Source: Chloroflexota bacterium (GTDB lineage: Bacteria > Chloroflexota > Chloroflexia > QHBQ01). From it: a stretch of DNA of 64,000 bases. The DNA is taken from contig JAYUUN010000093.1 in NCBI GenBank assembly GCA_043754535.1, forward strand, positions 19,590 through 83,589, in the 5' to 3' direction. The number at the start of each line of letters is the position of its first letter. The first letter of the stretch is position 1. The notes below the pieces were generated by a model. The model was not told the origin of the DNA. It saw only the letters and a list, made by a program, of their open reading frames with translations, and did not search any database. Positions 10,227-52,709 of the stretch are shown in pieces. A program made the translations under genes and the position numbers.

Positions 10227-10255
10227 TTGACAGCTTTGATGGTTGAGGGTACACT
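10227..10255 (+). promoter_or_regulatory. sigma70-type promoter, TTGACA-17-TACACT
   Basis: It lies 36 nt upstream of the asnB ATG at 10291. Confidence 0.5.
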
Positions 10256-10290
10256 TTGGCAGGCTTTCTTTAGCTGAGAGGAGCAAGGCG

Positions 10291-12237
10291 ATGTGTGGCA
10301 TTGCGGGGGTCTACAACTTGGGCGGCGGGCAGGCGACAGCCGCGCAACTGGCAGCAATGAGCGGGGTGATCCGCCACCGGGGGCCGGACGACGAGGGCTT
10401 CTACCAGTCTGCTGAAGGGCGGCTAGGCTTTGCCTTTCGGCGGCTGGCGATCCTTGACCTTTCGCCCAGCGGCCACCAACCAATGGCCGCCGCAGGTGGT
10501 CGCTATCGGATCATCTTCAATGGAGAGTTTTACAACTACAAGGAGGTTGCCGCTGAACTTGCGCGCAAGGGCTATAGCTTCCGCTCCACTGGCGACACCG
10601 AGGTGCTGGTCAACGCCTATGCCGAGTGGGGGCCAGCCTGTCTCAGCCGCCTGAACGGGATGTTCGCGTTCGCCCTCTGGGACGAGCAGCGGCAGCATCT
10701 GCTGATCGCCCGTGACCGCATGGGCATCAAGCCACTCTACTACTGGTACGACGCGGCCAGCCAATCATTGGTCTTCGGCAGCGAGATCAAGGCGATCCTG
10801 CAAGATTGCCGCGTGCCACGCGAGCCTGACCCCGCCGCCATTGCCGAGTACGCCCGCTTCATGTATGTTACTAGCGACCGCACCTGGTTCGCGGGCATCC
10901 GCCAGTTGCCGCCCGGTTGCTACCTCGAACTGGGGCCGGAGACCGAGGGCTTGCAGGTGCGCCGCTGGTGGGACTTGCCGAGCGAGGAGGACGGGCAAAA
11001 TCTACGAAGCGAGGATGAGTACATCACCGACCTGCGCGCTCTCCTACGCGACGCGGTGAAGTTGCACCTGCGGAGTGACGTGCCAGTGGGCGCGCACCTC
11101 AGCGGCGGGCTGGACAGCAGCAGCATCGTCGCCCTGGTCAGCAACCAGTTGCAGGCAAGTGGGGCTGGGCCGCTCAAGACCTTCTCTGGTGCCTTCGCCG
11201 AGGGAGCAGCCTACGACGAGCGAGCTTACATCAACCTGGTTGCCAACCGTTACCAGACCGACCACCACGAGACCATCCCCAGCGCAGCCGACCTGCCCGC
11301 TGTGTTCGACAAGCTGATCTGGCACATGGACTACCCGACTGTCGGCCCAGGACTGCTGCCCCAATACTTCGTCTGCAAACTGACGGCGGAGAACGGGGTA
11401 ATCGTGGTCAACGGTGGGCAGGGCGGTGACGAGTTGTTCGCAGGCTACTTCCGCTACGTGCCACCCTACCTGCGCGGCAAGCTAGCAACCCTGCGCCAAC
11501 ATCCCGCTGCTGCCGCCGGCTTGCTAGCCGACGCGGGCCGCATCGCCAGCCGCGCAGCACTGCGCGACCTGGCCCTCAATCGCACTCGACGCAAGATAGT
11601 GAATGAGGGCAATATGGCCCTGCTGGTCGCCGAGGCCCAGGCAGCCTTGCCAGAGCGCGACCCTGGCAGCAACCCTGGCAGCAACCCGCTGCAACGCGCC
11701 CTTTATTGGGATATGCGTAACTACCTGCCCGCTCTCTTGCACGTAGAGGATCGCACCAGCATGAGTGTTTCGCTTGAGAGTCGGGTACCGCTGCTCGACT
11801 ACCGCATCGTAGAGTTGGCAGCACGCATCCCTGCTGCGCTCAAGCTCAAAGGTTTGGAGACGAAGCGGATCATGCGGCGAGCGGTCGCTCCCCTACTCCC
11901 CCCGCAGATCGTACAGCGGCGCGATAAGAAGGGCTTCCCCACCCCGATTGATCTTTGGTTCAGCGGCCCGCTCTACGAGTGGGTATGCGACCAGCTAACC
12001 GACCTCAGCCCCACCGCCGCCGCGTTGCTCGACCAGCAGCACTTGCGCCAACTCCTACGTGAGCAGCAGCAGCATGACCACAGCCGCGCCCTCTGGATGG
12101 CCCTCAGCATCAACGCCTGGTGCCGCCAGTTTATAGACGACTTTGTGCCATTCAGCCCCACTTTGCTCCCGACGAAGGGGGGGCAAGAAGAGAGCTACCC
12201 CTTTGAAGGAGAGGAGAGGATGACTGCTGCGCGATGA
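10291..12237 (+). CDS. asnB: asparagine synthetase B family (glutamine-hydrolysing) amidotransferase
   Basis: The protein must start MCGIAGV, because the class-II glutaminase needs an Ntn Cys2; GAGGAG lies 7 nt upstream. The synthetase domain has the SGGLDSS PP-loop. The track start at 10243 is an upstream extension. Its position next to glycosyltransferases suggests a glycan-amidation role. Confidence 0.9.
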   Translation: MCGIAGVYNLGGGQATAAQLAAMSGVIRHRGPDDEGFYQSAEGRLGFAFRRLAILDLSPSGHQPMAAAGGRYRIIFNGEFYNYKEVAAELARKGYSFRSTGDTEVLVNAYAEWGPACLSRLNGMFAFALWDEQRQHLLIARDRMGIKPLYYWYDAASQSLVFGSEIKAILQDCRVPREPDPAAIAEYARFMYVTSDRTWFAGIRQLPPGCYLELGPETEGLQVRRWWDLPSEEDGQNLRSEDEYITDLRALLRDAVKLHLRSDVPVGAHLSGGLDSSSIVALVSNQLQASGAGPLKTFSGAFAEGAAYDERAYINLVANRYQTDHHETIPSAADLPAVFDKLIWHMDYPTVGPGLLPQYFVCKLTAENGVIVVNGGQGGDELFAGYFRYVPPYLRGKLATLRQHPAAAAGLLADAGRIASRAALRDLALNRTRRKIVNEGNMALLVAEAQAALPERDPGSNPGSNPLQRALYWDMRNYLPALLHVEDRTSMSVSLESRVPLLDYRIVELAARIPAALKLKGLETKRIMRRAVAPLLPPQIVQRRDKKGFPTPIDLWFSGPLYEWVCDQLTDLSPTAAALLDQQHLRQLLREQQQHDHSRALWMALSINAWCRQFIDDFVPFSPTLLPTKGGQEESYPFEGEERMTAAR

Positions 12238-13466
12238 AAATCCTTTACCTCAGCCAGTACTTCCCGCCCGAAGTGGGGGCGACCCAAACCCGTGCCTACG
12301 AGATGGCTCGCTACCTGGCCGCACAGGGGCATCAGGTGACGATGCTCACCGAGGTGCCGAACCACCCCAGCGGCATCATCCCAGCAGAGTATCGGCGGAC
12401 GGTAGCCGACTTCAGCACGCTAGAAGGCATCCGCGTAGTGCGCCTCTGGGTGCTAGCCAGCCCCAAAAAGAGCTTCTTGCGCCGCATCAGCTTCTATCTC
12501 AGTTACACCGCCATGGCGACCTGGGCTAGCCTGTTCCTGCGCGGCAAGTACGACGTGATCGTGGCAACCTCACCGCCCCTGTTTGTCGGGCTGGCGGGGG
12601 TGCTGGTCAGCTACCTGAAGCGGACGAAGCTGGTTTTTGAGGTGCGCGACATCTGGCCGGAGTCGGCGGTGATCCTGGGGGAACTGAACAACCCACGAGC
12701 GATCAAGCTGTCCGAAGCTATCGAGCAATGGTGCTACCGCCGCGCCCGCCAGATCGTAGTCGTCACCGAGGGCATCCGCCAGCGTCTCATTGCACGTGGC
12801 CTGTCGGCAAAGAAGCTGCACCTGATCATGAATGGCGCAAACGTCAGCCAGTTCCAGCCGCAGCCAGAGCAAGCCGCCGTCCTACGCCACAAGTTGGGGC
12901 TGGAGGGTAAGTTCGTTGTCCTCTATGCGGGCATCCACGGCATTGCACAGGGCATGGAGACGCTAGTAGAGGTTGCACGGCTACTGCGCGATGAAAGCAG
13001 CATCCACTTTCTTTTTGTTGGTGAGGGGCCGAAGAAGGAGGAAACTACCGCCCTGGTACGCGCCCTGGCCCTACCCAATGTCACTCTGGTGGGCGAACGT
13101 CCGCGTGAGCAGATGGCAGCCTACCTTAGCCTGGCTGACAGCAGCCTGGTGCCGCTAAAGAAAGTAGCCTTGTTCGAGGGAGCCTTGCCGAGCAAGATGT
13201 TCGAGGCACTGGCCTGCTCCACCCCAGTCATCCTCAGCGTAGGTGGCGAGGCTACTCGCGTGCTGGGGGAGATGCAGGCGGGGATCGCAGTTGAGCCAGA
13301 GAGCGCAGCCCAGATCGTCGAGGCGATTCGCTGGCTGCAAGCCCACCCGAACGAGGCGCGCTTGATGGGCGCAAGGGGCCGCGCCGCAGTCACTGCCCAC
13401 TATTCGCGGCAGGCGCAGGCCGCCGAGTTGACCTCCCTGCTAGAACAGGTAGTGGCCGAACGGTAA
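12234..13466 (+). CDS. glycosyltransferase family 4 (WcaI/WbuB-like)
   Basis: The N-terminus MKILYLSQYFPPEVGATQTRAYEMARYLAAQGHQVTMLT and the C-terminal GT4 EX7E-type region (VPLKK...FEGALPSKMFEALACSTPVI) are both present. It overlaps asnB by 4 bp. Confidence 0.85.
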   Translation: MKILYLSQYFPPEVGATQTRAYEMARYLAAQGHQVTMLTEVPNHPSGIIPAEYRRTVADFSTLEGIRVVRLWVLASPKKSFLRRISFYLSYTAMATWASLFLRGKYDVIVATSPPLFVGLAGVLVSYLKRTKLVFEVRDIWPESAVILGELNNPRAIKLSEAIEQWCYRRARQIVVVTEGIRQRLIARGLSAKKLHLIMNGANVSQFQPQPEQAAVLRHKLGLEGKFVVLYAGIHGIAQGMETLVEVARLLRDESSIHFLFVGEGPKKEETTALVRALALPNVTLVGERPREQMAAYLSLADSSLVPLKKVALFEGALPSKMFEALACSTPVILSVGGEATRVLGEMQAGIAVEPESAAQIVEAIRWLQAHPNEARLMGARGRAAVTAHYSRQAQAAELTSLLEQVVAER

Positions 13467-13477
13467 GCGGTGATGGA

Positions 13478-13488
13478 TGTGGTATAAT
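13478..13488 (+). promoter_or_regulatory. extended -10 element TGTGGTATAAT
   Basis: It lies directly after the GT4 stop, about 100 nt upstream of the 1410-aa gene. Confidence 0.45.
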
Positions 13489-13591
13489 GGCGGCAAGATG
13501 ATGGCAGTTTGTAGAGGCAGGCTTAGCCTCCCCAGGAGTGGGATCAGTATGGTTGAGCATGGCACGAGCAGCTTGAAGGAGATGATTGTAG

Positions 13592-16500
13592 ATGAGCCAA
13601 CGTGTCCGCGTCTCAGCGGTCAAACATTATGACCCCGCCAGCCCCGACCCAACAGATGAGGAGGAGCTAGCTGTCCTGCCAATAGAGGCTGGCCCACCCG
13701 TCAGCGAGCTAGAAGCTAGCAATGCGGCTAGCGAAGCTAATCAGCCCGCTGCGCACGCTGACCTGGATGCAACCACTGCCACAGTCGCCGAGCAGGTTGC
13801 CAGCCCCGAACTGGTTGAGGTCGAGACCACACCCACCAGCGAGTCGCTTGGGGCTGAGGTCACCGCCGAGCAAGTGCATCGCTCCTTGCTACCGGCTATC
13901 GTCATCCCCGCCCAATTCACCTGGCCGCTCTGGGTAGTGCGTCTGCTGCTGGTCGCGAGTGGGATTGGGCTTGGCATCTTCGGCCAGCTACGCTTGGAGC
14001 AGGCGCGGGCCGTCGCTTCGGTGCTGCCAGAGAACGCCTGGCTGCCCTTCATCGCTGGGGCGGTGCTGCTCGTCCTCGGTGCCTGGAACACGCCCACGCT
14101 GCTAACCGCAGTGCCAGCCCCCGCCCGCACCCTCTTTGGCGGCAATAGCCTCTGGTGGCTGGCGGGCGTGATGCTGGTCGCCGCGATTGCCTTCGTTGGC
14201 AACAGCCTGGTCTTCTTCAACAAGCTGAACACCATCACCGCCGACCCAGTGCAGACTCCAATCGACAGCGACCCTGGCACTCCCGCCTGGCTGTTCTTCC
14301 TGGCGGGTCTTGCCTGCTTTGGCCTGGCCCTGATCATCTGGGAGATCGGGGCGGGGCGGCGCGGTGGCGCACTCTCCGCCGACCCCGGCCCTGATCAGCT
14401 ACCGCGCTGGCTAGAAGGGTTGGTGCTGGCAGGCTTCTTCCTTGCTGCCCTCTTTGTGCGCTTCAACAACCTGGACAATGCCCCCCCTGGCCTCTGGTTT
14501 GACGAGGCGCAGAACGGCATCGTGGGCCAGCAGATCGTGGCTGGGGCCGCCGCGCCCCACCCGCTGTTCATCACCGGCTACACGCAGATGGGCGCGTTGT
14601 TCTTCTACCTGCAAGGGTTGCTGCTCAAGTTCTTTGGTGCGCAGATTTACCTGCTGCGGGTGTTGCCTGCCTTCGCTGGTGCAATCGCCGTGCCAATCAT
14701 CTACGTGCTGGCCTCGCGGCTCTACGGCTGGCGGACAGGCCTCGCTGCCGCCGCCTTCCTTTGCTTCAGCATCTGGAGCATCACCATGAGCCGCTTTGGG
14801 GTCGCCACCATCGTCACCACCACTCTCGACCTGGCGGTGATCACCTGCCTGGTGCTGGCCCTCCGCAGCGGGCGGCTGGGCTGGTATGGGCTGGCGGGGC
14901 TGCTGCTGGGCCTCAACCTGCATATGTACTATGGCGCACGGGTGCTGCCGCTGGTGATCGTCGCCGTCTTTGCCCACAAGCTAGTCAGCGAACGGTGGCG
15001 GTTCATCAAGGGCATCCGCTATGGGGTGCCGCTGTTCGTGATCGGCGCGCTGCTAGGCTTCGCCCCAATGGGCCTCTACGCCCTGCAACACCCTGGCGAG
15101 TTCTGGGGGCGCATCAACACCGTGGTCGCGGGGGGTGGTTCGGGAGCGGCAGGCATCTTCGCCAGCTTCCAGACTCCTGACGTGCAGATGAGCTTGCAGA
15201 AGCATCTGCTGATGTTCAACTGGGTCGGCGACGCGAACCCACGCCACAACTTCGCAGGGCTACCGATGCTGGACACAGTGGTGGCGGGCCTGTTCCTACT
15301 CGGCCTCGGCTACTGCGTCGCCCACTTCTGGCGGTGGCAGTACTTCTTCCCTGTCGTTTGGCTTGGCACTGAGATGCTGGGTGGTATCCTCTCGGTCTCC
15401 TTCGAGGCCCCGCAAGGCCACCGCACGATGGAGAATATGGTGACAACTGCGCTCCTGGCGGGCATTGCCGCTGGTGCCGCCCTCAATGCGCTGCGTAGCC
15501 CCTGGCTGGCCCGTCTTCGCACGCCACAACCAGCAGACCTCAGCCTCAAGCGGGTTGCCGCCGTTCCGCCAGTGGTGGTCGTTGACCAGCCACGCCGTCT
15601 GCGCCTGCGGATCGGGCAGGGGGTGGCAGCAGTGTTGGTGCTGGTGATGGCGGTGCAACTGGCGGGTACTGCCCTCGCCCGTTACGATCGCCAATCGCGC
15701 GCAACCCCTACCTGGCTTGAGATGTATGGCACCCAGTTGAGTGTCGCCCGCTTGCTGCTCAAGTACGACAAGGCTTATGAGTTCTACGTTTCGCCCCGCT
15801 ACATCGGCCTGCCACCGCAAGCCTTCCTTGCTCCAAATATCAACCCGCCGCGTACCTACGATGGTGCTTGGGCCTTGCCCTTCGATATCACAGGCCGCGA
15901 TGTAGGCATCATTGCCGACTTGGAAAGCTCGGCGGACATGGCCCGGATGTACAAACTCTACCCCAACGCCAGCTACACCGTCATCTACCCACCCAGCGAC
16001 CAGAACCCAGTGCAGTACGTGACCCTGCTCAAGGAGAGCGACCTGAACGCGATCAGGGGTGTTCATCTGCTTACCTACGCTGCCGACGCGGGCGCAGACC
16101 CTAAACCTACTAGCGACAAGTACGAGCCGAGCCTGAAGCACCAGTGGCTAGCGGCAGACGGTAAGTTCCCCCTGCGCGCGCGCTTTGAGGCCACTATGCG
16201 CCTGGCGAACAGCAGCACCGCCAGCTTCTATCTGGAAGGTGCGCCGGTCAGCGCGACAGTGACGGTGGATGGCTTCCCTGGGGGGACTGCTCGCTACGTC
16301 GCGGCTGGCTTGCACACTGTTGTGGTCGAGCAGACGGTAGCGGCGGCGGGTGGTCAGACGCACTTGCTGATGGATGCGAACGGCAGCGTTGGCCTGGAGA
16401 TAGCCCCGGAAAGCCTGTTCAAGCCGTCGGTGGAAGTTCGTGGCCTGACCGGCAACTACTACGCTGGCGGCAACGTGGCTGGCCCGCCGACGCTAGCGCG

Positions 16501-17824
16501 GATTGACCCGTTTATCTCCTTCTACTATCACCTGACCCCGATGGGCCGACCCTACGCCATCCAGTGGACGGGTAAGCTGTACATCCCAACCGACGGCAGC
16601 TACAACATCGCCACTGAGCAGATCAGCCGCTCGACCCTCGAAGTGGATGGACAACTGGGTATCACCAACAACGCCTTCAACAGCCTGGCCGAACAGTCCT
16701 TTACTCTCAAGCGCGGCTTCCACGACATTCGCCTAACCTTCTACGACACAGATGGTGGTTCGCATATGTTCCTCTACTGGACACCGCCCAGCGGCGAACG
16801 GACGATCATCCCTTCGGCCTTCCTCTGGCCGGTGCAAGGCAGCTACCCTGCGCTGGATGCACCAGGGTTGCCGACGCTGGCCGAGGCTACTGGCCGCCTG
16901 CCCCAGGACAAGCTGGCGAAGGATATGCCGCCCGCACCTACCCCTGTGCCGCAGCCAGCCCAACAGCCCCAGCAGCCCAGCGGACAGCCAACCCAGCCGC
17001 CAGCGGGCGAGAAGCTCGATCTACCCGCCGCCACTGTCCTTACTGCGCGGGCCACGATCAATCTTGAGGGAGAAGCTCCCGTGCGTGGGGTGGCGGCTGA
17101 CACGAAGGGTAACATCTATGTGCTAGCTGGTGGCGAGAGCAAGATACACAAGTACGACGCTGGTGGCAAGGAGCTAACCTCCTGGACGGTGGAGAAAGGA
17201 GGGCAGGTGGCTAAAGACCCCACAGCTATCTCCATTGCTGGCGAGCGCGTGGTGGTGCTGGACGCAGCGACCGCCAACCTCCTCAGCTACGACCTGAACG
17301 GCAAGCCGCTTTCGGTGGTGCAAGCCTGCGCCTGCTTCAACCCGCGCGACATGATCGCCCTGGTGGACGGTAGCTACTGGCTGGCGGACACCGGCCTCAA
17401 CCGCCTGATCCACGTGGACAACCAGGGCAAGGAGCTTGGCGTTGTCGGCCAACAGGGGAGTGAGGGCGGCCAGTTGCTCGAACCAGCCGCCGTCTGGCAA
17501 GACAGGGAGGGCAACCTCTACAGCTACGACAGTGGCAACAAGCGGCTGCAACGCTTCGACCGTAGCGGTCACTTCCTAGCCCAGTGGCCCTTCTACCCCA
17601 GCCCACCGCTAAACGGGACGCGCATCAGCGGCAACGACAAGTACATCTTTGTTACCGCCCCAGGCCAGAGCATGATCGTCGGCTATGACCACGAAGGCAA
17701 GGGGCCAGTGACCTGGCAGCCGAGCGGCAAGAGCGCACAACCGAGCGCGATCACCGCCACTGGCAGCGGCTTTGCCGTCGCTTACCCGAAGGAGCAGCGG
17801 GTTTTGCTATTCGACTTGCCCTGA
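13592..17824 (+). CDS. giant membrane glycosyltransferase: PMT/ArnT-like GT-C multi-TM domain + PA14 domain + NHL-repeat beta-propeller
   Basis: 1410 aa. The acidic N-terminus is followed by about 12 TM helices, with the GT-C 'DE' motif in the first external loop (GLWFDEAQNG). A PA14-like segment follows (GLTGNYYAGGNVAGPPTLARIDPFISFYYHL...IQWTGKLYIPTDGSYNIA...LYWTPPSG). Then comes a Pro/Gln linker and C-terminal NHL repeats (GNIYVLAGGESKIHKYD; GNLYSYDSGNKRLQRFD). Confidence 0.8.
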   Translation: MSQRVRVSAVKHYDPASPDPTDEEELAVLPIEAGPPVSELEASNAASEANQPAAHADLDATTATVAEQVASPELVEVETTPTSESLGAEVTAEQVHRSLLPAIVIPAQFTWPLWVVRLLLVASGIGLGIFGQLRLEQARAVASVLPENAWLPFIAGAVLLVLGAWNTPTLLTAVPAPARTLFGGNSLWWLAGVMLVAAIAFVGNSLVFFNKLNTITADPVQTPIDSDPGTPAWLFFLAGLACFGLALIIWEIGAGRRGGALSADPGPDQLPRWLEGLVLAGFFLAALFVRFNNLDNAPPGLWFDEAQNGIVGQQIVAGAAAPHPLFITGYTQMGALFFYLQGLLLKFFGAQIYLLRVLPAFAGAIAVPIIYVLASRLYGWRTGLAAAAFLCFSIWSITMSRFGVATIVTTTLDLAVITCLVLALRSGRLGWYGLAGLLLGLNLHMYYGARVLPLVIVAVFAHKLVSERWRFIKGIRYGVPLFVIGALLGFAPMGLYALQHPGEFWGRINTVVAGGGSGAAGIFASFQTPDVQMSLQKHLLMFNWVGDANPRHNFAGLPMLDTVVAGLFLLGLGYCVAHFWRWQYFFPVVWLGTEMLGGILSVSFEAPQGHRTMENMVTTALLAGIAAGAALNALRSPWLARLRTPQPADLSLKRVAAVPPVVVVDQPRRLRLRIGQGVAAVLVLVMAVQLAGTALARYDRQSRATPTWLEMYGTQLSVARLLLKYDKAYEFYVSPRYIGLPPQAFLAPNINPPRTYDGAWALPFDITGRDVGIIADLESSADMARMYKLYPNASYTVIYPPSDQNPVQYVTLLKESDLNAIRGVHLLTYAADAGADPKPTSDKYEPSLKHQWLAADGKFPLRARFEATMRLANSSTASFYLEGAPVSATVTVDGFPGGTARYVAAGLHTVVVEQTVAAAGGQTHLLMDANGSVGLEIAPESLFKPSVEVRGLTGNYYAGGNVAGPPTLARIDPFISFYYHLTPMGRPYAIQWTGKLYIPTDGSYNIATEQISRSTLEVDGQLGITNNAFNSLAEQSFTLKRGFHDIRLTFYDTDGGSHMFLYWTPPSGERTIIPSAFLWPVQGSYPALDAPGLPTLAEATGRLPQDKLAKDMPPAPTPVPQPAQQPQQPSGQPTQPPAGEKLDLPAATVLTARATINLEGEAPVRGVAADTKGNIYVLAGGESKIHKYDAGGKELTSWTVEKGGQVAKDPTAISIAGERVVVLDAATANLLSYDLNGKPLSVVQACACFNPRDMIALVDGSYWLADTGLNRLIHVDNQGKELGVVGQQGSEGGQLLEPAAVWQDREGNLYSYDSGNKRLQRFDRSGHFLAQWPFYPSPPLNGTRISGNDKYIFVTAPGQSMIVGYDHEGKGPVTWQPSGKSAQPSAITATGSGFAVAYPKEQRVLLFDLP

Positions 17825-17843: not shown

Positions 17844-17883
17844 AAAAAGAAACCCCGTCCCTCAACCAGGGAACGGGGTTTCG
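17844..17883. terminator. bidirectional intrinsic terminator between convergent genes
   Basis: aaaaaga-aaccccgtccc-tcaacc-agggaacggggtt. The T-tract is on the minus strand. Confidence 0.55.
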
Positions 17884-17893: not shown

Positions 17894-18961
17894 CTAAGCC
17901 TCACGCTCCGTCTGCTTCTCCGCGTAGATGGTGAGCGTCGCACCCTGGCGCAGGGCAGCGGCCAGTAGGGTTGCTGGTATGCTGACCACGCCTAGCAGGC
18001 CACCGAGCAGGATGGTAGCGGCCACCTGGGGCGCAAGGTTGCCAGCCCCCTCGTCGGCCCCGATCACCTTTGCGGTACGCCCACGCAGGAGATTGTAGAG
18101 CAGATTAGGGCGTAGGCCGAGGCGGTTGAGGGTCGATTGCACAAAGCTGAAGCTATCAAACTCCGGGGCGAAGAACTGCATCCTTCGTACCCGCAGGCCC
18201 GTGCGCTTGAGGGCGCGTCGCAGCGAGTGGGGGGTGAAGTGGTTGAGGTGGCGCGGCACATCCAGGTGGAACCACTTGTCGCCGCTGACCCGCGCTTCGA
18301 GGCTGGCGAAGTTCGGCACACCGATCAGGAAGATACCGCCAGGGCGCAGCAGTCGGTTGACCTCGCGCATGGTGGCGGCGGGGTCGATCACGTGTTCCAG
18401 CACGTGCCACATTACTACCGCGTCAAAGTGGCCGCTAGGGAAGTGCTGATCGGCAAGGTCGCCAACCTGCACTGGCAGGCCCAGCACCTCGCGGGGGTAG
18501 CTAGCTGATCCCTCGCTCAACTCCGTTCCCACAACATCCCAGCCCAGCTTCTGCAATTGGGCGAGCAAGAGACCACGCCCGCAGCCGACATCTAGCACCC
18601 GCCCTGGCTGGCCGCCGTTCATCAGCGTCAACTGGCGCGCGCGGTAGCGATAGAGGGCATCTTGCAGCCGCTCGATCACGCTGGGGAAGCGTTTGTCGCG
18701 GTGGGTGCCGTAGTAGCCAGCCGGGTAGTAGGCGGCCAGTTCTTTCGGCGCAGGGGTGGGCTGAGTCTGCGCCCAGCCATGCTCCGCATTGACCACGATC
18801 TCGAACTGCTCGTGAGTGATGTAGTCGGTGGCAGCGAACAGCCGCCGCGGGCTGGGGGTCTGCGGCTGGCTGGCCTCTTGCCTGGCACCGCTGCTCTCTG
18901 GGCTAGCCGCATCCGCTTCACTTAGGTTCATCGTTGCTTCCTCTGGTATGCTACTGATCAT
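17894..18961 (-). CDS. class I SAM-dependent methyltransferase (Methyltransf_11/23-like)
   Basis: Motif I is VLDVGCGRGLL and the acidic loop is DAVVMWHVLEHV. Its start codon shares one nucleotide with the stop of the upstream GT2 gene (TAATG). It is a paralog of the methyltransferase at 39740..40525. Confidence 0.8.
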   Translation of the reverse strand: MISSIPEEATMNLSEADAASPESSGARQEASQPQTPSPRRLFAATDYITHEQFEIVVNAEHGWAQTQPTPAPKELAAYYPAGYYGTHRDKRFPSVIERLQDALYRYRARQLTLMNGGQPGRVLDVGCGRGLLLAQLQKLGWDVVGTELSEGSASYPREVLGLPVQVGDLADQHFPSGHFDAVVMWHVLEHVIDPAATMREVNRLLRPGGIFLIGVPNFASLEARVSGDKWFHLDVPRHLNHFTPHSLRRALKRTGLRVRRMQFFAPEFDSFSFVQSTLNRLGLRPNLLYNLLRGRTAKVIGADEGAGNLAPQVAATILLGGLLGVVSIPATLLAAALRQGATLTIYAEKQTEREA

Positions 18962-19839
18962 TATTGGCTGATGGCGGCGGTATCGCGCCCCTCCACCTTG
19001 TTCAAGTCATCACCAGGGGGGGTGGCGGTGCCACCGGGGGTAAAGAGGCCCACACTATGATAGCGACTGACGATCTGTGAGAGCTTCTTGCTGAAGATCG
19101 GGTAGCGCATCAGGTGCAGCCGCTTGTGCAGCAGAAACTTACGCATCACGTCCAGGGTTGCCAGACCGTAAACTACGCTGCGGCGGAAGTTGACCGAGGA
19201 GGCTTCCTTGAAGTAGCGGGTCGGCACTGCGATTTCGGCGATACGGAAGTCGAAGGCGCGGGCCTGGGCGATCACCTCACTATCAAACACAAAGTCGTCG
19301 GAGTTGAGCAGGAAGGGGATCGTCTGCAACATCTGGCGAGTGTAGGCGCGGAAGCCGGTGTGCGCCTCGGAGAGACTAGTACCCATCACCAGGTTCTCGG
19401 TAGTGGTTAGGAAGCGATTGGAGATGTACTTCCAAATTGGCATTCCCCCGGCCAGAGCCTCGCCACTGAGCAGGCGCGAACCCAGCACCATGTCGGCGCG
19501 CCCCTCCAGCAGCGGCTGGATCATCTGCGGCACCAGGTCGGCGGCGTACTGGTTGTCAGGATGCAGCATCACTATGATGTCTGCCCCATCACGCAGAGCC
19601 TCGAAGTAGCAGGTCTTCTGGTTGCCGCCGTAGCCCCGATTCTGGATGTGGGTGATCACCTTGAGGCTGAGGCGGCGGGCGATTTCTACCGTCTCGTCGC
19701 TACTTACATCGTCCACCAGGATGATCTCGTCCACCACATCGGGGGGGATGTCGGCGACAGTGCGCTCCAACGTCTTCTCTGCGTTGTAAGCGGGCATCAC
19801 GACGACGACTTTGAGCTTGTTGCTGTTCATGGGCTGCAA
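18961..19839 (-). CDS. glycosyltransferase family 2, Dpm1/GtrB-like polyprenyl-phosphate sugar synthase candidate
   Basis: VVVVMPAYNAEKTLERTV...IILVDDVSSDET (DxD context) ...RGYGGNQKTCYFEA. Confidence 0.85.
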   Translation of the reverse strand: MQPMNSNKLKVVVVMPAYNAEKTLERTVADIPPDVVDEIILVDDVSSDETVEIARRLSLKVITHIQNRGYGGNQKTCYFEALRDGADIIVMLHPDNQYAADLVPQMIQPLLEGRADMVLGSRLLSGEALAGGMPIWKYISNRFLTTTENLVMGTSLSEAHTGFRAYTRQMLQTIPFLLNSDDFVFDSEVIAQARAFDFRIAEIAVPTRYFKEASSVNFRRSVVYGLATLDVMRKFLLHKRLHLMRYPIFSKKLSQIVSRYHSVGLFTPGGTATPPGDDLNKVEGRDTAAISQ

Positions 19840-19868: not shown

Positions 19869-22679
19869 CTATTGTGGAGGGAAGACCTGGACGCGGCGGC
19901 TGTCCGACTCCAGGGTATAAACCTTGCCGCCTGGATCGGTAGCCACGTCGACCAGGCCCTGGAACTGCCCGGCCCCGCCACCAGGCAGGCCGAGGATGCG
20001 GGCGTTACCATTGTCGGTATTGATCGCTATCAGTCTGTTGCGCTCTGAACTGGTGACGTAGAGGATGTTGCCGTGGGCGGCTAGGTGTAGGCTGGTCTCC
20101 TGCTCGAAGCCGAGCAGGGGCCACTCGCGCTGAAAATTGCCCGCCCTGTCGAACTGAGCGATCCGCCGCTTGAGGTCGCTGACGTAGATTTGGCCGTTGC
20201 TACCAACCGCGCAATCTATCGGCTGGTAGAGTTGCTTTGGCACCGTGCGTTCCAGGTTATCGTTGCCGAACTGAGCGATCAACTTGCCAGTGTTGTCCAA
20301 CTTGATCACCCGATTGCCGCCGGTGTCGGCCAGGTAGATGTTACCTGTTGGGTCAGCGCAGAGGCCACGTGAGCCGTAACTCTGGGCGGCGTTGTTGAGG
20401 TTGAGGTTGCCCAGCAGCTTGCCGTCTGGGTCGTAGACAGCCATGCCACCGTTGGTGTTGAGGGCGATCAGGTGGCCCTGGGTAAAGAGCAGCGACACCA
20501 GCCGTCCGCGCTCGCTCTCACTCAACTCGGCGAACAGCCGCCAGTGGGCTGCTGGCTTGCCGTCAACGTTGATGCGCGTCACAGTGAAGTTCTCGCGGTC
20601 AGCAGTGTAGGCGTTACCCTGATCGTCGGCGGCAATCGCCAGCGGGATCGGGATCGCGTAGTCACCTTGAGGGACGGTGGTGGTCAGCGGCACAAACTGC
20701 GCGGGCGGCACCTCGCTGATCTGGGCGTAGGCATCCTTCAGGCCGAAGGTGTAGCTGTAGAACAGGTAGCTGCCGATCAGCAGCCCTAGCCCAGCCAGCA
20801 GGCTGATCAGCGAGTGGCGCAGCCCCCAGCGTGGTGGGATTGGGATGGTCGCAGGCAGCACGTAGGTCGCTGGTTCAGCCTCCACCACCGCTGCCCCCGC
20901 TGCCCCTGCTGTTTCGCCCAGGCTGGCTGCTACCCCCGGCTGAACCATCGGCACTAGCTGGGTGGCGGCTGGCACATCAGGCAGGCTCCCAGCACTAGCC
21001 ACCCTACTGGAAGCGAGTTGCGGACGGTAGCTGCGTTGCGCCCACCAGTAGAGTAGCAACCCCAGTAGCAGCACCGCCGCAATCGAGGTGAGGGCAGGAA
21101 CGCTCTCCTGCACGGCATTGCGGGCCGAGTAACCCTGACTGAGGAAACCCGCCTTGCTGCGGGCGAACACAAAATCGGGCAGCAGGCCGTTGCTGGGGAT
21201 CGTCTCGATCCACTGCTGTAGCCCTGGGTTGGGGATGCGCAGCAGTAGGCTCTTAAACAGGTCGAAGCCGTTGAGGGCGAAGCTAAACGAATCCTGGGGG
21301 TTGAAAATGAAGGCGGCGGTTTGTACCAGGCTGACTGCCAGCAAGCCAGCATAGGTCAGCTTGTAGATCAGCGAGGGGAGTAGAGTGCTAATGCGGGCGA
21401 AGCCGAGGGCGAAGGGTAGGGCGAACAGCGGCAGGATAGCAATGAAATAGCGGGCTGGTGGAGCCCAGATGCCCCACCAGTACTTGAAATTGGCGAGCAG
21501 GCCGAGGTAGGGAATGGCTACCGCCAGGATCACGATCAGGTCTAGCCGCCACCGCTTCTCCAGGCCCATGATGATTAGCCCTACCCCAGCAAGCAGGAAG
21601 ACCGGGGCGGTGGTGAGGAAGCCGAAACGCTGGTCGATGAACAGGCCGAGGCCAGAGAGGATGGTATCGGTCGCATCATTGCGTTCTAGATAGCCCGCCT
21701 TGATCGTGAACTCGTGAAAGAGAGTGTAGCTCCAACCGAAGATGCCCAGGGCAGAGACGAGCAGCACCAGCGGCAGGGTAGCATAGTGGCGCAACCAGGT
21801 AGCTAGCTTTGGCTTGCCACGCACGCTCATGTAGAAGTAGAATAGGGTGAGGATGCCAGCAAGCGGAATGTAGCGATAGTGTAGCCAGGGCAGTGAAGCA
21901 ATGCTGAGGGCGACCAGTGCAGTCTGCACCCCGGTGTTTTGCCAGAGGCGGATGCGACGAAAGGCGTAGATCACCAGCAGGGCGGCGGGCAGTTCGGTGA
22001 AGATCAGGTAGATGAAGGGGAAGATGGGCAGGGTAAGCATGAAGGTAGCAACAGTGAGGATAGCGATCCATCGCTTGTTGACCGTTTCGCGCACCAGCAG
22101 GTAGATGTTGGCGGCCAGCAGTGCGCCGAGCAGGTTGAGGAAGAAGACTACCGCCAGCCGCCCACCCAGGGCATAGGCAGGGGCGATCAGGATGCTAAGG
22201 CCAAGGCCATGCCAGGTGTAAGCCTCGTTCTGGCTACCATCGGCAGGCAGCGGCGTGGCAGGGTCGGTGCTGATGCAACGGCGACTGAGCGGCTCAATCT
22301 GCTCCCATTGCACTGGCAGTGGGTAGGTCATGTTCGGCCAGCCCTGGTAGCCCTGCGGACGGGCCACACCTTGCTGCCAGTAGGAGGGAGGATAGAAGCC
22401 TTGCTCGTCGCGCTGGCGGAAGTTATTGCACTCGTTGAAATCACCATCCTTGAGCAGGCTGATCGTAGTCATCAGGTAGGTTGGCTCGTCGCCAGAAACC
22501 GGGTCGAGGATGGTAGTGAGGCGGGGGGTGAGAGCGGCAAAGAGGGCAAGGGCGATTAGAAAGACGATAGCCATCTCCACGAAGCTGGGGCTGGCACTCG
22601 TCGCGGTGGGGTGGGAGCGCGCAGCAGGTGGGCTGGGAGCGGCCATGATGGTTATGCTGCTCTCTTGCGAAACACTCAT
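19869..22679 (-). CDS. GT-C (PMT/ArnT-like) membrane glycosyltransferase with a C-terminal NHL-repeat beta-propeller
   Basis: 936 aa. The 'DE' motif follows TM1 (DPVSGDEPTY). There are about 12 TM helices, and the C-terminal NHL repeats include GNIYLADTGGNRVIKLD, GQIYVSDLKRRIAQFD and GKVYTLESDSRRVQVF. Confidence 0.8.
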   Translation of the reverse strand: MSVSQESSITIMAAPSPPAARSHPTATSASPSFVEMAIVFLIALALFAALTPRLTTILDPVSGDEPTYLMTTISLLKDGDFNECNNFRQRDEQGFYPPSYWQQGVARPQGYQGWPNMTYPLPVQWEQIEPLSRRCISTDPATPLPADGSQNEAYTWHGLGLSILIAPAYALGGRLAVVFFLNLLGALLAANIYLLVRETVNKRWIAILTVATFMLTLPIFPFIYLIFTELPAALLVIYAFRRIRLWQNTGVQTALVALSIASLPWLHYRYIPLAGILTLFYFYMSVRGKPKLATWLRHYATLPLVLLVSALGIFGWSYTLFHEFTIKAGYLERNDATDTILSGLGLFIDQRFGFLTTAPVFLLAGVGLIIMGLEKRWRLDLIVILAVAIPYLGLLANFKYWWGIWAPPARYFIAILPLFALPFALGFARISTLLPSLIYKLTYAGLLAVSLVQTAAFIFNPQDSFSFALNGFDLFKSLLLRIPNPGLQQWIETIPSNGLLPDFVFARSKAGFLSQGYSARNAVQESVPALTSIAAVLLLGLLLYWWAQRSYRPQLASSRVASAGSLPDVPAATQLVPMVQPGVAASLGETAGAAGAAVVEAEPATYVLPATIPIPPRWGLRHSLISLLAGLGLLIGSYLFYSYTFGLKDAYAQISEVPPAQFVPLTTTVPQGDYAIPIPLAIAADDQGNAYTADRENFTVTRINVDGKPAAHWRLFAELSESERGRLVSLLFTQGHLIALNTNGGMAVYDPDGKLLGNLNLNNAAQSYGSRGLCADPTGNIYLADTGGNRVIKLDNTGKLIAQFGNDNLERTVPKQLYQPIDCAVGSNGQIYVSDLKRRIAQFDRAGNFQREWPLLGFEQETSLHLAAHGNILYVTSSERNRLIAINTDNGNARILGLPGGGAGQFQGLVDVATDPGGKVYTLESDSRRVQVFPPQ

Positions 22680-22966: not shown

Positions 22967-24463
22967 CTAGCGACCTACCTTGTTGGGGCCGAGGCTGACG
23001 CGCTGGGCGCGGCTACCGTCGTGCGAGAGTAGTATGCGCTCGTCGCCAACCACAGTCTCTAGATGCACAGGCCGCCCCCACAGTTGGTGGATGTACTGCA
23101 AGACCTTCTCCGCATAGCTCGCATCCAATTCCTGGCCCTCGTAGTGGTGGCGCAGGTAGAGTTCGTGGTTGCGGTTGTAGTCGCCATCGTCAACGGTGAT
23201 GTAGGGCTGGCCGAAGTTGGTCATGCTAGCAACGATGCCATCGCGCACCTTCTCCCAGTTCTTCTCGACGATCACCCACTCGTTGCCCTGCTTGGCGTAG
23301 AGGTAGAGGTCTAGCTCGGCGATCAGTTCTTTGGTCAGGTAGTTGCGGAGGAAGGATACATCATTGTCCATCTCGCGCACCTCGAATATCTTGGCCCGAC
23401 CCTGGCCGGGAACGCGCTTGAGGCGGTCACGCTCCTCCTCGGTCGGTGCGTCCCAGCGGCGTTCGATGGACTCGTAGAGTTTGAGGCCCAGGTAGTAGGG
23501 GTTGAGTTGGAAGCGCGAGTGATGCATCACGCCCGCATTAACTTTGGCGTACTCAGTGTAGTCGTCGCTACTCATCTCAAACTCGCGCATGATGCTCTGG
23601 TGGTGGTAAGCGGCCCAGCCCTCGTTCATAATCTTGGTCTGCATCTGCGGCACAAAGTAGAGCATCTCCTGATGCACGATGCCGATCACGTCACGCTGCC
23701 AATCCTCAAGGTGGCGGGCGTGCTGCTGGAGAAAGAGGAGCAAGTCCTTCTCTGGCTGGGCCGGGAAGCGGCGACGCTCGCTCTCCTTCTTCTCCTTCTC
23801 TTTCTCCTTCTCACTCTTGAGCGGCAAAGCGGCTTGCTGGGCCGCCTCTGCCTCAGTCGGCAGCCCTGGTAGCGACCAGAGGTCGTCGTAAGCAGACTCA
23901 GCCACGTGCGGCTTCACCTGCTCGCGGCGGTTGCCCTCGCTCTCCTCACCCGCTGTGGCGAAGCTCTGGTGCGGATCGATGTGTTCGGAGATCGAGAGTA
24001 CCGCGTCCAGGAACTCCTCCACCTTCTTGCTGCCATGCTGGTACTCATATTGGCGGATACGCTCGGCATTGAGGCTGGCGGTCTCGATCATGTGGCGGTT
24101 GGTGCGCTGGAAGTAGATGTTGTTCTTAAAGAAGTCCACATGGCCGAGGACATGGGCGGCAACCAGTCGGTTGGCGGTCAGGCTGTTGTTCTCCAAGAGG
24201 AAGGCGTAGGCAGGGTTAGTGTTGATCACCATCTCGTAGATGATGCTCAGACCAAAGTCGTACTGCATCTTCATCTTGTTGTACGCCTTGCCATGCGTCC
24301 AGTGGCTGAAGCGACCGGGAATGCCATATGCACCGAACTCGTACATGATGCTGGCAGGCACCACCTCGAAGTGGACGGGGTAGAAGTCCAGCCCGTTGGC
24401 TTTCGCCATCTCGACGATCACCTCAATATCTTTGGTTAGCTGCTCGTAGTCTTGTTCGTTCAA
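22967..24463 (-). CDS. spoVR: SpoVR-family protein
   Basis: It aligns residue for residue with the B. subtilis SpoVR N-terminus (GLDFYP...FGAYGIPGRFSHWTHGKAY). It has a TTG start with AGAGGGT 6 nt upstream. Confidence 0.9.
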   Translation of the reverse strand: MNEQDYEQLTKDIEVIVEMAKANGLDFYPVHFEVVPASIMYEFGAYGIPGRFSHWTHGKAYNKMKMQYDFGLSIIYEMVINTNPAYAFLLENNSLTANRLVAAHVLGHVDFFKNNIYFQRTNRHMIETASLNAERIRQYEYQHGSKKVEEFLDAVLSISEHIDPHQSFATAGEESEGNRREQVKPHVAESAYDDLWSLPGLPTEAEAAQQAALPLKSEKEKEKEKKESERRRFPAQPEKDLLLFLQQHARHLEDWQRDVIGIVHQEMLYFVPQMQTKIMNEGWAAYHHQSIMREFEMSSDDYTEYAKVNAGVMHHSRFQLNPYYLGLKLYESIERRWDAPTEEERDRLKRVPGQGRAKIFEVREMDNDVSFLRNYLTKELIAELDLYLYAKQGNEWVIVEKNWEKVRDGIVASMTNFGQPYITVDDGDYNRNHELYLRHHYEGQELDASYAEKVLQYIHQLWGRPVHLETVVGDERILLSHDGSRAQRVSLGPNKVGR

Positions 24464-24467
24464 TGGT

Positions 24468-25080
24468 TTACCCTCTGGTTAGCCTCTGGTAGGCGGCACG
24501 AACTGCTACTTCTAGTTCGCTAGCTTGAACTTCGTAGCGAGCAAAGTTTTGTATGTTGTCTGGCTTCATGTGAATCTGGCCTTCGCCTACGTTACCTCGG
24601 TGCTGACCTTTTGAGTAGCCTCTAATCTGGGTTAGCTCATCTGCCTTGATCACCCAGAACCGGGCAACATCAAGCCAGACAGCTATAAAGACAAAAACTG
24701 AAGCCTGTGCAACCTTCAATTGCTGAAAGTTCATGTCGAAGTAATAGCCAGAAGTTGACAGGAGTGGAACACTCGCACCTTTATCCCCTTGCGGGGCTTG
24801 CCCCATGCTCTACTGGTTTTGACTTCTACTTTAATATTATCTAGAGTAGTATCGTAGCTGTTGCCCAAAGGTGGTGTCATGCCAGGAACGTTGCTCATTA
24901 CTTGCATAACCCCCACTTGCCAGTGTCGGTTGGAGCGGAGAACGCAAAAACGTGAGCGTAGGTCTGACTTTGATCAGCCATGTACTCCTGCTTCAGCCGC
25001 TCATACGCCGCTATGACCGCTGGATCAGCCAGTTGCTCAAACAGCGCATCCAGCCTTTGCCACAGTTCGTCAATCGTCAA
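24468..25080 (-). other. low-GC (~48%) 613-bp segment with three overlapping small ORFs in three different frames (60, 61 and 112 aa)
   Basis: Windows of ~60 nt here have 42-53% GC, against ~62% in the flanks. The three ORFs overlap by 19 bp and 76 bp. The first has a TTG start 9 nt after the methyltransferase stop and no Shine-Dalgarno sequence. The third ends 5 nt before spoVR, inside the spoVR Shine-Dalgarno sequence. The middle frame carries a D-x9-EVK pattern (SYDTTLDNIKVEVK). Confidence 0.3.
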
Positions 25081-25089
25081 GTGCTTGCC

Positions 25090-26064
25090 TCAATCGAACA
25101 ATGATAGCTGCCCACTATCATCCACAATGCTGTCAATGGTGCCGTCAAGTTCAGCCGCAAACGGATTACTGTTCTGCCAGCCGCGCTTGCCGCTAGCTCG
25201 CCAGCGTTCCAACCTGCGGATCGTGATCTCGCAGAAGACCGCATCGTTGTCCATCGTGAAGCAGCGGCGGCCCGATAGTTCAGCTTGCAGCAGGGTCGTG
25301 CCAGAGTGAGCGAAGAAGTCCAGCACGGTGTCGCCTGGCTGCGAACTGGCGTTGATGATCCGCTCGATAGCCTTGAGCGGCTTCTGTGCGTAGCAACCGT
25401 TGACGTTTTCTTCCAGCCGGTAGAAGACCTGCTGGACATCGAACCAGACGTTGCCTGCCCGGATGTAAGGCGACTTGCCACGCTCGGTGTTCTCGGTCAG
25501 TTCGCCTTCAACTTCCTTGTAGTAACCCTTGACTGCCTTCGGTATCTCGGTGTACTGCGGCGTGAAGAAGGGCTTGCCCAGCGTGTAGTAAAGCAACTCC
25601 TGCCGAACAGCCATCCAGTTGTGTTGCGTGCCGTAGCCACGCTGGTTACGCATGGTGATGAAGCTGCGTGAAGAAAACGGCGTGTTGCTCATCATCAGCA
25701 TAAACTGCGGCAACGGCTGATAGTGGTTGTCCTGATCCGCCCCCAGCCAAACATAGAGGCTGCTAGTAGGCAGCAGCACAGCAGCGGTGTTGTCCACCCA
25801 CTGCCGACACCATGCAGCGTACTCGTCGGCTGAACGGCTGGCGAAGGCAACGAGGTTGTAGGGTAGGTCCTGCACCGCCAGAGCCGCTTTGTCGTTGCCG
25901 CACAGCTTACTAACATCAGCGGCGGATGCGGCATCCAGGCAGCCAACGCGGTGGCCGCCAACGGCATCCACCCACACCTCGCCCGGACGCAGACGGCAGA
26001 AGTCGAGCAAGCGGATGCGTAGCTCCTGCTCCTTGTCCAAGCGTGGTAGTGGATTAGCGATCAT
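25090..26064 (-). CDS. beta-class N6-adenine/N4-cytosine DNA methyltransferase (motif IV before motif I)
   Basis: Motif IV is DLPYNL, a variant of DPPY. Motif I is QPGDTVLDFFAHSGTT, followed by ...AQKPLKAIERII.... The start overlaps the yeaH stop (ATGA at 26061..26064). No intact restriction enzyme gene lies adjacent. Confidence 0.8.
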   Translation of the reverse strand: MIANPLPRLDKEQELRIRLLDFCRLRPGEVWVDAVGGHRVGCLDAASAADVSKLCGNDKAALAVQDLPYNLVAFASRSADEYAAWCRQWVDNTAAVLLPTSSLYVWLGADQDNHYQPLPQFMLMMSNTPFSSRSFITMRNQRGYGTQHNWMAVRQELLYYTLGKPFFTPQYTEIPKAVKGYYKEVEGELTENTERGKSPYIRAGNVWFDVQQVFYRLEENVNGCYAQKPLKAIERIINASSQPGDTVLDFFAHSGTTLLQAELSGRRCFTMDNDAVFCEITIRRLERWRASGKRGWQNSNPFAAELDGTIDSIVDDSGQLSLFD

Positions 26065-27254: not shown

Positions 27255-27348
27255 AACATACCTGCCTTGCAAAGGGGCGAGTAGCCACCCACCCCACGTA
27301 GAAGTTGCGTTTGACAGAGGGTACTGCCAAGCTCTGGTGGCTGCCCAG

Positions 27349-29244: not shown

Positions 29245-29786
29245 TGCTCTGTCTCCTTCGCAAGCGGGACGGTTGCCCAAAACCGCCGCGCTCACCTGCC
29301 TTGACTGTTGGGGACGGCCCCGCTGAACGGTATAATAATTATACGCCAGCTTGCCGACCGGGGTTGCACAACACTGCCTACCAACAATGCCACGAAGTTA
29401 AAGATCAGGTTAGAATTGCCTTGACCAGGTACAGAAAGAGGACACTGCCGCGCCACTGAGCGGCTCTTGCGAACCGTCGGTTGGCGACACTGCCCTCCTT
29501 ACCAAACTACTATACAGCGATCTTGCGGGCGCATACGCTTTGCCCTTCTAGCTGCCACTGCTGTGTTTCAAGGTTAAGATCATCTGGCTCTTTTACCCAT
29601 TCTTTGGCAAGGGGGCAGCTTAGGGACTGCCTACGTTACTCTTATCTTACCATACGCTGCAAATCTTGACAATAGCGCATTGGTACCGCCAGCTAGCAGC
29701 CAACTGATGACAATATGCAGGGAACGTGCCAGACGCAAAAGCCGCCCCGATGTTGCAGGGCGGCTGCGATGGGCCAAAAGCCGCAC

Positions 29787-37490: not shown

Positions 37491-37526
37491 CCCCCCTCCT
37501 GCTTGCAGGAGGGGGGTGTTCTTTTA
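37491..37526 (+). terminator. strong intrinsic terminator (11-bp GC stem, U-tract)
   Basis: cccccctcctg-cttg-caggagggggg followed by tgttctttta. Confidence 0.7.
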
Positions 37527-37532
37527 CCCAAA

Positions 37533-37541
37533 TGGTATAAT
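37533..37541 (+). promoter_or_regulatory. extended -10 element TGGTATAAT, 6 nt before the ATG (leaderless-type start)
   Basis: TGGTATAATcagcacATG. The shared AATCAGC sequence after the -10 box also appears at the pxpC promoter. Confidence 0.45.
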
Positions 37542-37547
37542 CAGCAC

Positions 37548-52663: not shown

Positions 52664-52709
52664 AAAGGCACGATTGTGAAGGCTTTAACAGACCAGAGGA
52701 GGAAGCGGG

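Follow-up and report, generated by a model that had tools for sequence, protein, structure and literature searches.

A GT-C glycosyltransferase of an uncultured Chloroflexota bacterium with a PA14 dyad and an NHL propeller in its predicted ectodomain

It is an established design principle that glycosyltransferases of the GT-C class can carry modules for acceptor recognition on the same polypeptide. In the PMT enzymes the MIR domains are one case of such built-in recognition. The carbohydrate-binding module (CBM) of EmbC is an acceptor-binding module on a GT-C enzyme (PMC3044687), and in AftD and the GT136 enzyme ORF12 the acceptor glycan is bound by CBMs on the GT-C protein, the CBM of ORF12 binding the unmodified acceptor polysaccharide (PMC11127046). 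Here we describe a gene found in a 64,000 nucleotide (nt) stretch of contig JAYUUN010000093.1 (assembly GCA_043754535.1, positions 19,590 to 83,589 of the forward strand), which is called the window below. The host is an uncultured Chloroflexota bacterium, whose nearest relatives are labelled Chloroflexia. The gene encodes a GT-C glycosyltransferase of 1410 amino acids (aa), in which the membrane core is followed by a predicted ectodomain containing two PA14-like modules and an NHL beta-propeller.

ArnT of Cupriavidus metallidurans (GT83; PDB 5F15/5EZM), an enzyme with 13 transmembrane (TM) helices, shares only 15% sequence identity with the protein. ArnT acts on lipid A and has a small periplasmic domain without PA14 or NHL, whereas the Chloroflexota protein does not match the NCBIfam ArnT model. 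EmbA/B/C and AftD resemble the protein as GT-C enzymes with C-terminal binding modules, but this likeness is architectural and not one of close homology, because the TM-scores are low (~0.25). Moreover, the modules of Emb/AftD are CBM-type jelly rolls, not PA14, these proteins have no NHL domain and belong to other CAZy/Pfam families, and their donor is decaprenyl-phosphate-arabinose. The protein would follow the logic of ORF12 of Citrobacter youngae (GT136) and of the Gtr-type systems, in which a GT-C enzyme works together with a flippase and with a polyprenyl-phosphate sugar synthase of the GT2 type. In our locus, however, the GT2 gene is convergent and not co-operonic, no adjacent flippase was found, the ectodomain folds are different, and no relationship to these systems was seen in the sequence. 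Pmt1/2/4 (GT39, eukaryotic and actinobacterial) carry a MIR beta-trefoil in loop 5, whereas our protein has a C-terminal PA14 dyad, and a Pfam scan at E<=0.01 revealed neither a MIR nor a PMT_4TMC domain. By profile matches and predicted fold we assign the protein to the GT-C_A fold and to PMT_2, in the GT39-GT83 neighbourhood of CAZy, as an equivalog of neither ArnT nor PMT.

The open reading frame (ORF) extends from ATG to stop over 4233 nt, and its translation contains all four PA14 strings quoted in the original prediction, an earlier description of this sequence as a GT-C transferase fused to one PA14 domain and an NHL propeller. All three parts were found, but the PA14 modules are two, not one, and the description had missed a juxtamembrane domain (aa 703-815), four N-terminal TM helices and a disordered linker of ~30 aa. 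The gene comprises the following features:

13592..17824, + strand: whole gene (from the ORF listing), encoding a 1410-aa GT-C glycosyltransferase with a PA14-dyad/NHL ectodomain
13592..13891, + strand: acidic, low-complexity, poorly conserved N-terminal region (aa 1-100), predicted to be cytoplasmic (charge count)
13910..14353, + strand: four accessory TM helices before the GT-C core (aa 107-254; AlphaFold model and hydropathy)
14405..15682, + strand: 11-TM GT-C core (aa 272-697; Pfam PMT_2)
14501..14506, + strand: D304-E305, acidic pair of putative catalytic role, in extracytoplasmic loop 1 (LWFDEAQNG; family alignment)
15203..15274, + strand: outer-loop motif H..MFN..GD.N.RHN......D (aa 538-561; alignment column counts and topology)
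15401..15424, + strand: second outer motif FEAPQxHR (aa 604-611; alignment column counts and topology)
15698..16036, + strand: alpha/beta juxtamembrane ectodomain (aa 703-815; seen in the models, without Pfam match)
16043..16426, + strand: PA14-like module A (aa 818-945), degenerate and missed by Pfam (hhalign, Foldseek)
16427..16846, + strand: PA14 module B (aa 946-1085), detected by Pfam, without the DcisD site and with T-E-Q at 1008-1010
16847..17032, + strand: linker (aa 1086-1147), of which aa ~1111-1140 are Pro/Gln-rich and predicted to be disordered (from pLDDT, the predicted local distance difference test score)
17033..17821, + strand: six-bladed NHL beta-propeller (aa 1148-1410; Foldseek, family profile)
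17327..17335, + strand: C1246-A-C1248, followed by F-N-P-R (propeller alignment)

The fusion of these parts into a single polypeptide, as originally proposed, held up against the frameshift or assembly error which the original prediction had named as its refutation. An independent ENA assembly (locus L001) contains the same 4233-nt ORF, uninterrupted, with 26 substitutions and no indels, and relatives at 25-50% identity have the same domain order within one polypeptide.

Two AlphaFold2 models were made from family alignments, one covering aa 96-1100 (pLDDT 88.5, predicted TM-score (pTM) 0.86), the other aa 700-1410 (pLDDT 86.9, pTM 0.59). The polytopic core has the helix arrangement of the GT-C_A fold. 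Pfam PMT_2 (PF13231) matches aa 336-478 with 36.5 bits (curated cutoff 26.1, E 7.4e-9). A phmmer search of the PDB with aa 255-703 gave no match, even at E<=10, thus the core assignment relies on Pfam and fold. In the NCBIfam scan only weak matches to Agl23 (26.9 bits) and archaeal STT3 (18.2 bits) appeared, and no ArnT model. The canonical position of the acidic residue(s) in GT-C enzymes is after core TM1 (PMC11127046). In the focal protein D304-E305 lies 13 residues past core TM1 and is invariant in all 43 aligned relatives. Invariant in the same 43-sequence alignment are R290, S400-R401, Y446, R507, G546-D547, P607 and R611, whereas H538, N549, H552, N553, D561, E605 and Q608 are conserved to at least 90%; the two outer motifs (G546-D547..R551-H552-N553 and E605..P607..R611) are thereby invariant or nearly so. 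With this pattern of conservation the core looks like that of a catalytically competent GT-C enzyme.

The original prediction had placed the PA14 and NHL parts outside the cytoplasm, and the predicted topology agrees. TM1 of GT-C enzymes crosses the membrane from inside to outside. The C-terminus is expected to be outside because the four preceding helices keep the N-terminus inside and are followed by 11 core helices. The accessory-helix segment can be aligned in 37 of the 43 relatives, while the homolog alignments start near the first TM helix, behind a segment (aa 1-102) with 4 Lys/Arg and 19 Asp/Glu residues. In agreement with the positive-inside rule, Arg/Lys residues are enriched in two loops, aa 463-476 and aa 633-671, the second of which contains 7 of them and precedes the last TM helix. 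Twenty of the 23 polar core residues conserved to at least 90% are on outer loops or in outer helix halves. From the helix parity (4 + 11), the Lys/Arg-rich loops and the outward-facing polar residues the DE loop and everything past ~aa 700 are therefore predicted to be extracytoplasmic.

The ectodomain of ~710 residues (711 aa) consists of the alpha/beta juxtamembrane domain, the PA14 dyad, the disordered linker and the NHL propeller. The juxtamembrane domain has pLDDT values of ~85-95 in both models and is conserved jointly with the PA14 dyad in the relatives. Module B conforms to PA14 by profile and by fold: Pfam PA14 (PF07691) matches aa 951-1074 with 32.0 bits (cutoff 24). Module A was aligned by hhalign to the family profile of module B (probability 99.4%, E 2e-20), and Foldseek aligned ~298 columns to the PA14 dyad of RsgI3 (6qe7). 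The high pTM of the core together with the PA14 arm (0.86), and the low value once the propeller is included (0.59), suggest that the juxtamembrane-PA14-PA14 arm would be rigid and the propeller flexibly tethered.

Lectin-type PA14 domains with a DcisD/N site include those of Flo5, Epa1, RsgI3/4 and MpIBP. In the closest solved PA14 structures a DcisD (or D-cis-N) pair and an Asn hold the calcium which is needed for sugar binding, and the PA14B module of RsgI3, which lacks the DcisD pair, is free of calcium and by itself unable to bind pectin (PMC6852018). In HMMER alignments D86-D87 of RsgI3 and D87-N88 of RsgI4 correspond to I1011-S1012 of our protein. The family columns at this position contain I/L and S/D, and no more than 3 of 43 members could have D-D there. 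In module A, too, the columns of the 43-sequence alignment show no acidic pair that is conserved. The site is thus missing from both modules and from ~40 of the 43 relatives. Canonical lectin function through the DcisD mechanism was considered and rejected. The dyads of RsgI3 and RsgI4 (Clostridium thermocellum, C. clariflavum; 6QE7, 6QDI) sense pectin/xylan by means of DcisD/N calcium, a motif absent from the focal modules, and RsgI is a signalling protein (anti-sigma factor), whereas the focal protein is an enzyme. The original prediction had taken PA14 as a glycan-binding module and suggested that product or substrate recognition is built into the transferase. The first of these claims was not borne out, since the calcium/sugar site is absent from both modules; the second has precedent as a principle in EmbC, AftD and GT136 ORF12. 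Two residues before the DcisD position there is a conserved T-E-Q (aa 1008-1010; present in 29, 30 and 34 of the 43 relatives, respectively), which, speculatively, may mark a remodelled site.

Residues 412-441 of the second model, in the linker, have pLDDT values below 50. The domain behind the linker is, by family profile and modelled fold, an NHL propeller. Pfam gave only sub-threshold matches for the focal propeller (Mala_s_1-like, 26.5 versus 27.5 bits), and NHL was not significant. Foldseek aligned ~280 columns to the NHL domains of Thin, Brat and TRIM2 (TMt 0.79-0.83), and the extracellular sensor of PknD (1rwl) was found with TMt 0.78. Searching the PDB with the family profile gave the TRIM71 NHL domain with E 1e-41 and PknD with E 2.9e-24. 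The PknD sensor of Mycobacterium tuberculosis (1RWL) is, like the domain described here, a bacterial extracytoplasmic six-bladed NHL propeller on a membrane enzyme, but PknD is a Ser/Thr kinase with a single TM helix leading to the propeller. C1246 and C1248 are the sole cysteines of the 711-aa ectodomain. In the propeller-bearing relatives the Cys residues are kept in 21 of 23 and R1252 in all 23, with [FY][FY]-P-R as the consensus after C-x-C. The C-x-C could be a metal, redox or disulfide site.

Relatives were collected by a pattern scan of the GTDB species representatives followed by tblastn confirmation, which yielded 508 relatives. Among the 80 best loci, 76 match through the PA14 region, and the loci come from metagenome-assembled genomes (MAGs) of Chloroflexia, Anaerolineae, Caldilineae, Thermoflexales and Dehalococcoidia. 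Members were found in MAGs of the genera Caldilinea and Longilinea. Three of the 80 (L020, L021, L066) are in MAGs with labels outside the Chloroflexota (Binatia, Actinomycetes and Acidobacteriota), which is due either to mis-binning or to lateral transfer.

Domain architecture was determined with hidden Markov models (HMMs) built from the family in 86 fetched loci. There were ~75 ORFs with the GT-C core, the juxtamembrane domain, the PA14 dyad and NHL, and ~33 ORFs without propeller; labels such as 'PA14a-PA14b-PA14a' in this census are cross-hits of two related HMMs and do not stand for three modules. Tandem arrays of 2-4 GT-C paralogs were frequent. In seven loci (L003, L014, L022, L033, L045, L056, L069) tandem paralogs differ in their ectodomains, with or without the juxtamembrane domain, PA14 and NHL, and in L005 a 1652-aa PMT_2-DUF2298-NHL protein precedes a PMT_2-PA14 protein. 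These arrangements suggest that the GT-C cores of Chloroflexota have acquired their ectodomains by modular shuffling.

When aa 703-1085 of the ectodomain were compared exhaustively, by phmmer, with 1.84 billion representatives, 158 clusters (50% identity) were matched at E<=1e-30. Full-length matches to the ectodomain are located at ~residues 540-1000 of 900-1400-aa proteins, behind an N-terminus of GT-C size; other contexts were matched through PA14 repeats only. All proteins retrieved by the profile search were from MAGs or metagenomes, none of them from cultured organisms, and bore automatic names such as 'glycosyltransferase family 39 protein', 'PA14 domain-containing protein' and 'ArnT-like glycosyltransferase/sugar lactone lactonase YvrE'. 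The combination of domains is not rare; it is the dominant architecture of a Chloroflexota-wide family (~75 ORFs in 86 loci). The statement of the original prediction that it was aware of no studied member with the PA14-NHL-GT-C combination is consistent with what we found: the open-access literature on PA14, GT39 or NHL with GT-C or Chloroflexi contained nothing relevant, an absence which is no proof. The architecture in which a GT-C core bears a PA14 dyad plus a tethered NHL propeller is uncharacterised, yet it is common in Chloroflexota and is held in the databases under generic names.

The surroundings of the gene contain the following elements:

10243..12237, + strand: AsnB-type amidotransferase, upstream and co-directional (Pfam/NCBIfam)
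12234..13466, + strand: WcaI-like GT4, directly upstream and co-directional (Pfam/NCBIfam)
13480..13488, + strand: TGGTATAAT, extended -10-like element (perfect) within the 125 nt between the GT4 and focal genes (read from the sequence)
13576..13581, + strand: Shine-Dalgarno sequence AAGGAG, 10 nt 5' of the ATG (read from the sequence)
17849..17882, - strand: 13-bp GC-rich perfect hairpin with a T-tail, resembling an intrinsic terminator, between the convergent focal and methyltransferase genes
17894..18961, - strand: S-adenosylmethionine (SAM) methyltransferase of 355 aa with a hydrophobic C-terminal segment (Pfam Methyltransf_23, 112 bits)
18961..19839, - strand: GT2 glycosyltransferase of 292 aa, candidate polyprenyl-phosphate sugar synthase (Pfam Glycos_transf_2)
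19869..22679, - strand: polytopic membrane protein of 936 aa with an NHL propeller (Pfam NHL, 57.8 bits)

The element TGGTATAAT lies ~100 nt 5' of the focal ATG and was not reported by the promoter scan, which demands a -35 match; it is possibly the gene's own promoter. The hairpin sits in a 69-nt gap just past the stop codon, before the convergent downstream gene. The -10-like element and the T-tailed hairpin suggest that the gene can be transcribed as a unit of its own. The AsnB and GT4 genes lend the upstream region the flavour of polysaccharide biosynthesis.

Downstream there is a convergent unit of three genes, with the 936-aa membrane/NHL protein first, followed by the 292-aa GT2 and the SAM methyltransferase. 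Homologs of the methyltransferase occur near family genes in 3 other loci, and its tie to the focal gene is uncertain. The best NCBIfam matches of the GT2 are AglJ, mycobacterial PpgS, Dol-P-hexose transferase and ArnC, and its best PDB matches are the Pyrococcus DPMS 5mlz and ArnC. Because all NCBIfam matches were under the equivalog cutoffs, the GT2 was assigned to a class but not to a sugar. Of 84 other loci, 10 have a GT2 ortholog (250-400 bits) at a distance of no more than 6 kb from a family GT-C gene. In 8 of these 10, which represent several classes, the gap to the GT-C gene is 16-167 nt, and in 6 of these 8 the two genes are co-directional. In one locus (L002) the genes that come after the GT2 encode a flippase-like LPG_synthase_TM protein and BacA. 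The recurrent abutment suggests that the GT2 is a donor source for the family, and it would fit the three-component logic of extracytoplasmic glycosylation (PMC11127046). Conserved synteny as a general route to function was tried and rejected: the neighbourhoods are variable, only the GT2 recurs, and the AsnB/GT4 pair does not.

These observations can be combined in a mechanism which we rate somewhat above an even chance: the GT-C enzyme would transfer a sugar from a polyprenyl-phosphate donor to an envelope glycan, with the PA14 arm guiding the acceptor and the propeller making a second contact. The linked GT2 (DPM1/AglJ/PpgS class) would synthesise the polyprenyl-phosphate sugar at the cytoplasmic side of the membrane, across which it would next be flipped. 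The GT-C core, acting in an ArnT/PMT-like manner, would move the monosaccharide to an acceptor in the cell envelope, for which a polysaccharide of the wall or surface is the most likely candidate. The arm made up of the juxtamembrane domain and the two PA14 modules would pack on the core and hold or select the acceptor chain through a non-canonical, calcium-independent surface, while the NHL propeller on its flexible tether would serve as a second binding module of longer reach for an envelope component. A glycan acceptor is favoured by the type of fold found in the arm, by the occurrence of paralogs in arrays and by the polysaccharide genes nearby.

Several points weigh against this mechanism. 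Carbohydrate binding by the PA14 modules is an assumption, as both lack the DcisD/N site. NHL propellers bind proteins or RNA more often than glycans. The position of a rigid arm over the active site is what we infer from pTM only, and the topology was drawn from hydropathy, charge and fold homology. The GT2 linkage was seen in only the 10 of 84 other loci mentioned above. In the window itself the GT2 gene is 1.1 kb away, convergent, and in one unit with the 936-aa membrane/NHL gene, thus it could equally serve this co-operonic neighbour. In locus L001, which is near-identical, Pfam revealed no flippase of the GtrA/SMR/MATE type in the genes called up to 10 kb on either side. Nor is the AsnB/GT4 neighbourhood conserved: a GT4 gene is present in 1 other locus and AsnB in none.

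The alternative that survives best, although we consider it unlikely, is a PMT-like protein O-glycosyltransferase, which would modify secreted or surface-layer proteins on Ser/Thr, with the NHL propeller docking the protein substrate and the PA14 dyad taking the role of MIR. The Pfam match to PMT_2, the precomputed PF02366 (PMT) assignment of several relatives and the NCBI name 'glycosyltransferase family 39' point in this direction. So do the DE pair in outer loop 1, which PMTs also have, the number of 11 core TM helices, which is that of Pmt1/2, the typical use of NHL propellers as macromolecule-binding platforms, and the presence of an SLH-domain surface protein gene in the window. The fold, however, does not discriminate, since ArnT, STT3 and AglB score equal to or above the PMTs, and the Pfam scan lacked the MIR and PMT_4TMC domains. 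Arrays of 2-4 paralogs with varied ectodomains resemble polysaccharide assembly lines of the emb/aft type, and the upstream context is of the polysaccharide type as well.

We give little credence to a more far-reaching reading of the two conserved ectodomain motifs, in which the C-x-C..P-R would give the propeller a second centre, active or metal/redox, or would anchor it to an outer layer of the envelope (S-layer/sheath), and the PA14 dyad, with a remodelled, calcium-independent T-E-Q site, would represent a new mode of ligand binding. If it were true, glycosyl transfer at the membrane would be coupled either with another chemical step or with a structure at a distance of tens of angstroms, and the family would be a Chloroflexota-specific envelope-assembly machine without characterised counterpart.

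Next in rank, and improbable, is an ArnT-like modifier of lipids or glycolipids, with a membrane lipid or lipoglycan anchor as the acceptor and an ectodomain for regulation or localisation. JGI pipelines do name relatives 'ArnT-like glycosyltransferase', but the NCBIfam ArnT model was unmatched, and an acceptor in the plane of the membrane would hardly call for 710 conserved ectodomain residues comprising two lectin-fold modules plus a tethered propeller. We also know of no lipid A synthesis in Chloroflexota. The weakest explanation, that a frameshift or misassembly has joined a separate PA14/NHL gene to the transferase, or that the GT-C core is a decayed non-catalytic scaffold, has next to no probability and is effectively refuted: no point in its support was found, the independent assembly has the ORF uninterrupted with substitutions only, the ~75 census ORFs, from different classes, have the same domain order in one frame, most representative clusters have an N-terminus of GT-C size before the part matched by the ectodomain query, and the residues of the catalytic loop are invariant.

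Among the other genes of the window, the 936-aa protein was considered as a paralog of the focal protein and rejected, as only the propellers are related (24% identity); hhalign gave the cores a probability of 0.3% for the single sequence and 10.5% in profile-profile comparison. Its membrane domain has no Pfam match and no PDB sequence match, and all homologs are named 'hypothetical protein'. A G-D-E-P-x-Y motif directly past TM1 is near-invariant, and 3 of 31 members weakly match DIE2_ALG10. The protein probably represents a divergent, unannotated GT-C family. The following large ORFs lie further along the window:

31096-34233 and 34347-37472, + strand: two tandem large membrane proteins matching NCBIfam TIGR03663 'Agl23' (169.6 and 265.5 bits versus 126.25)
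37503-39743, + strand: 746-aa ORF without family match, after the tandem TIGR03663 pair

In the second TIGR03663 protein (34347-37472) PMT_2 is matched as well, and an NHL propeller is matched strongly (120 bits). The window thus encodes at least three, possibly five, GT-C-type proteins, three of them with NHL propellers.

On the - strand at 22967-29295 there is a SpoVR - DUF444 - PrkA triad, in which an N6_N4 DNA methyltransferase gene (25090-26064) is inserted between SpoVR and DUF444. The - strand gene at 49971-52397 encodes an 808-aa protein with three SLH domains and a PQQ-like beta-propeller segment; the organism would accordingly anchor surface proteins to a secondary cell-wall polymer, and such a polymer is a candidate acceptor class for the GT-C enzymes. 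The 733-aa ORF at 52584-54785 (- strand) has LysR helix-turn-helix and substrate-binding domains at aa 18-310 only, and its other ~420 residues, without family match, are either an unusual C-terminal extension or the result of an over-extended ORF call.

How the cell envelope of Chloroflexota is composed and assembled is, to our knowledge, poorly understood, and we know of no ligand for the propeller of M. tuberculosis PknD. The family described here occurs in at least five Chloroflexota lineages, often in tandem arrays, and has no characterised member. It is a natural test case for ligand recognition by PA14 folds without calcium site, and another for the ligands of extracytoplasmic bacterial NHL propellers. 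The identity of its acceptor, if found, would point to a major envelope glycan or glycoprotein of the Chloroflexota.

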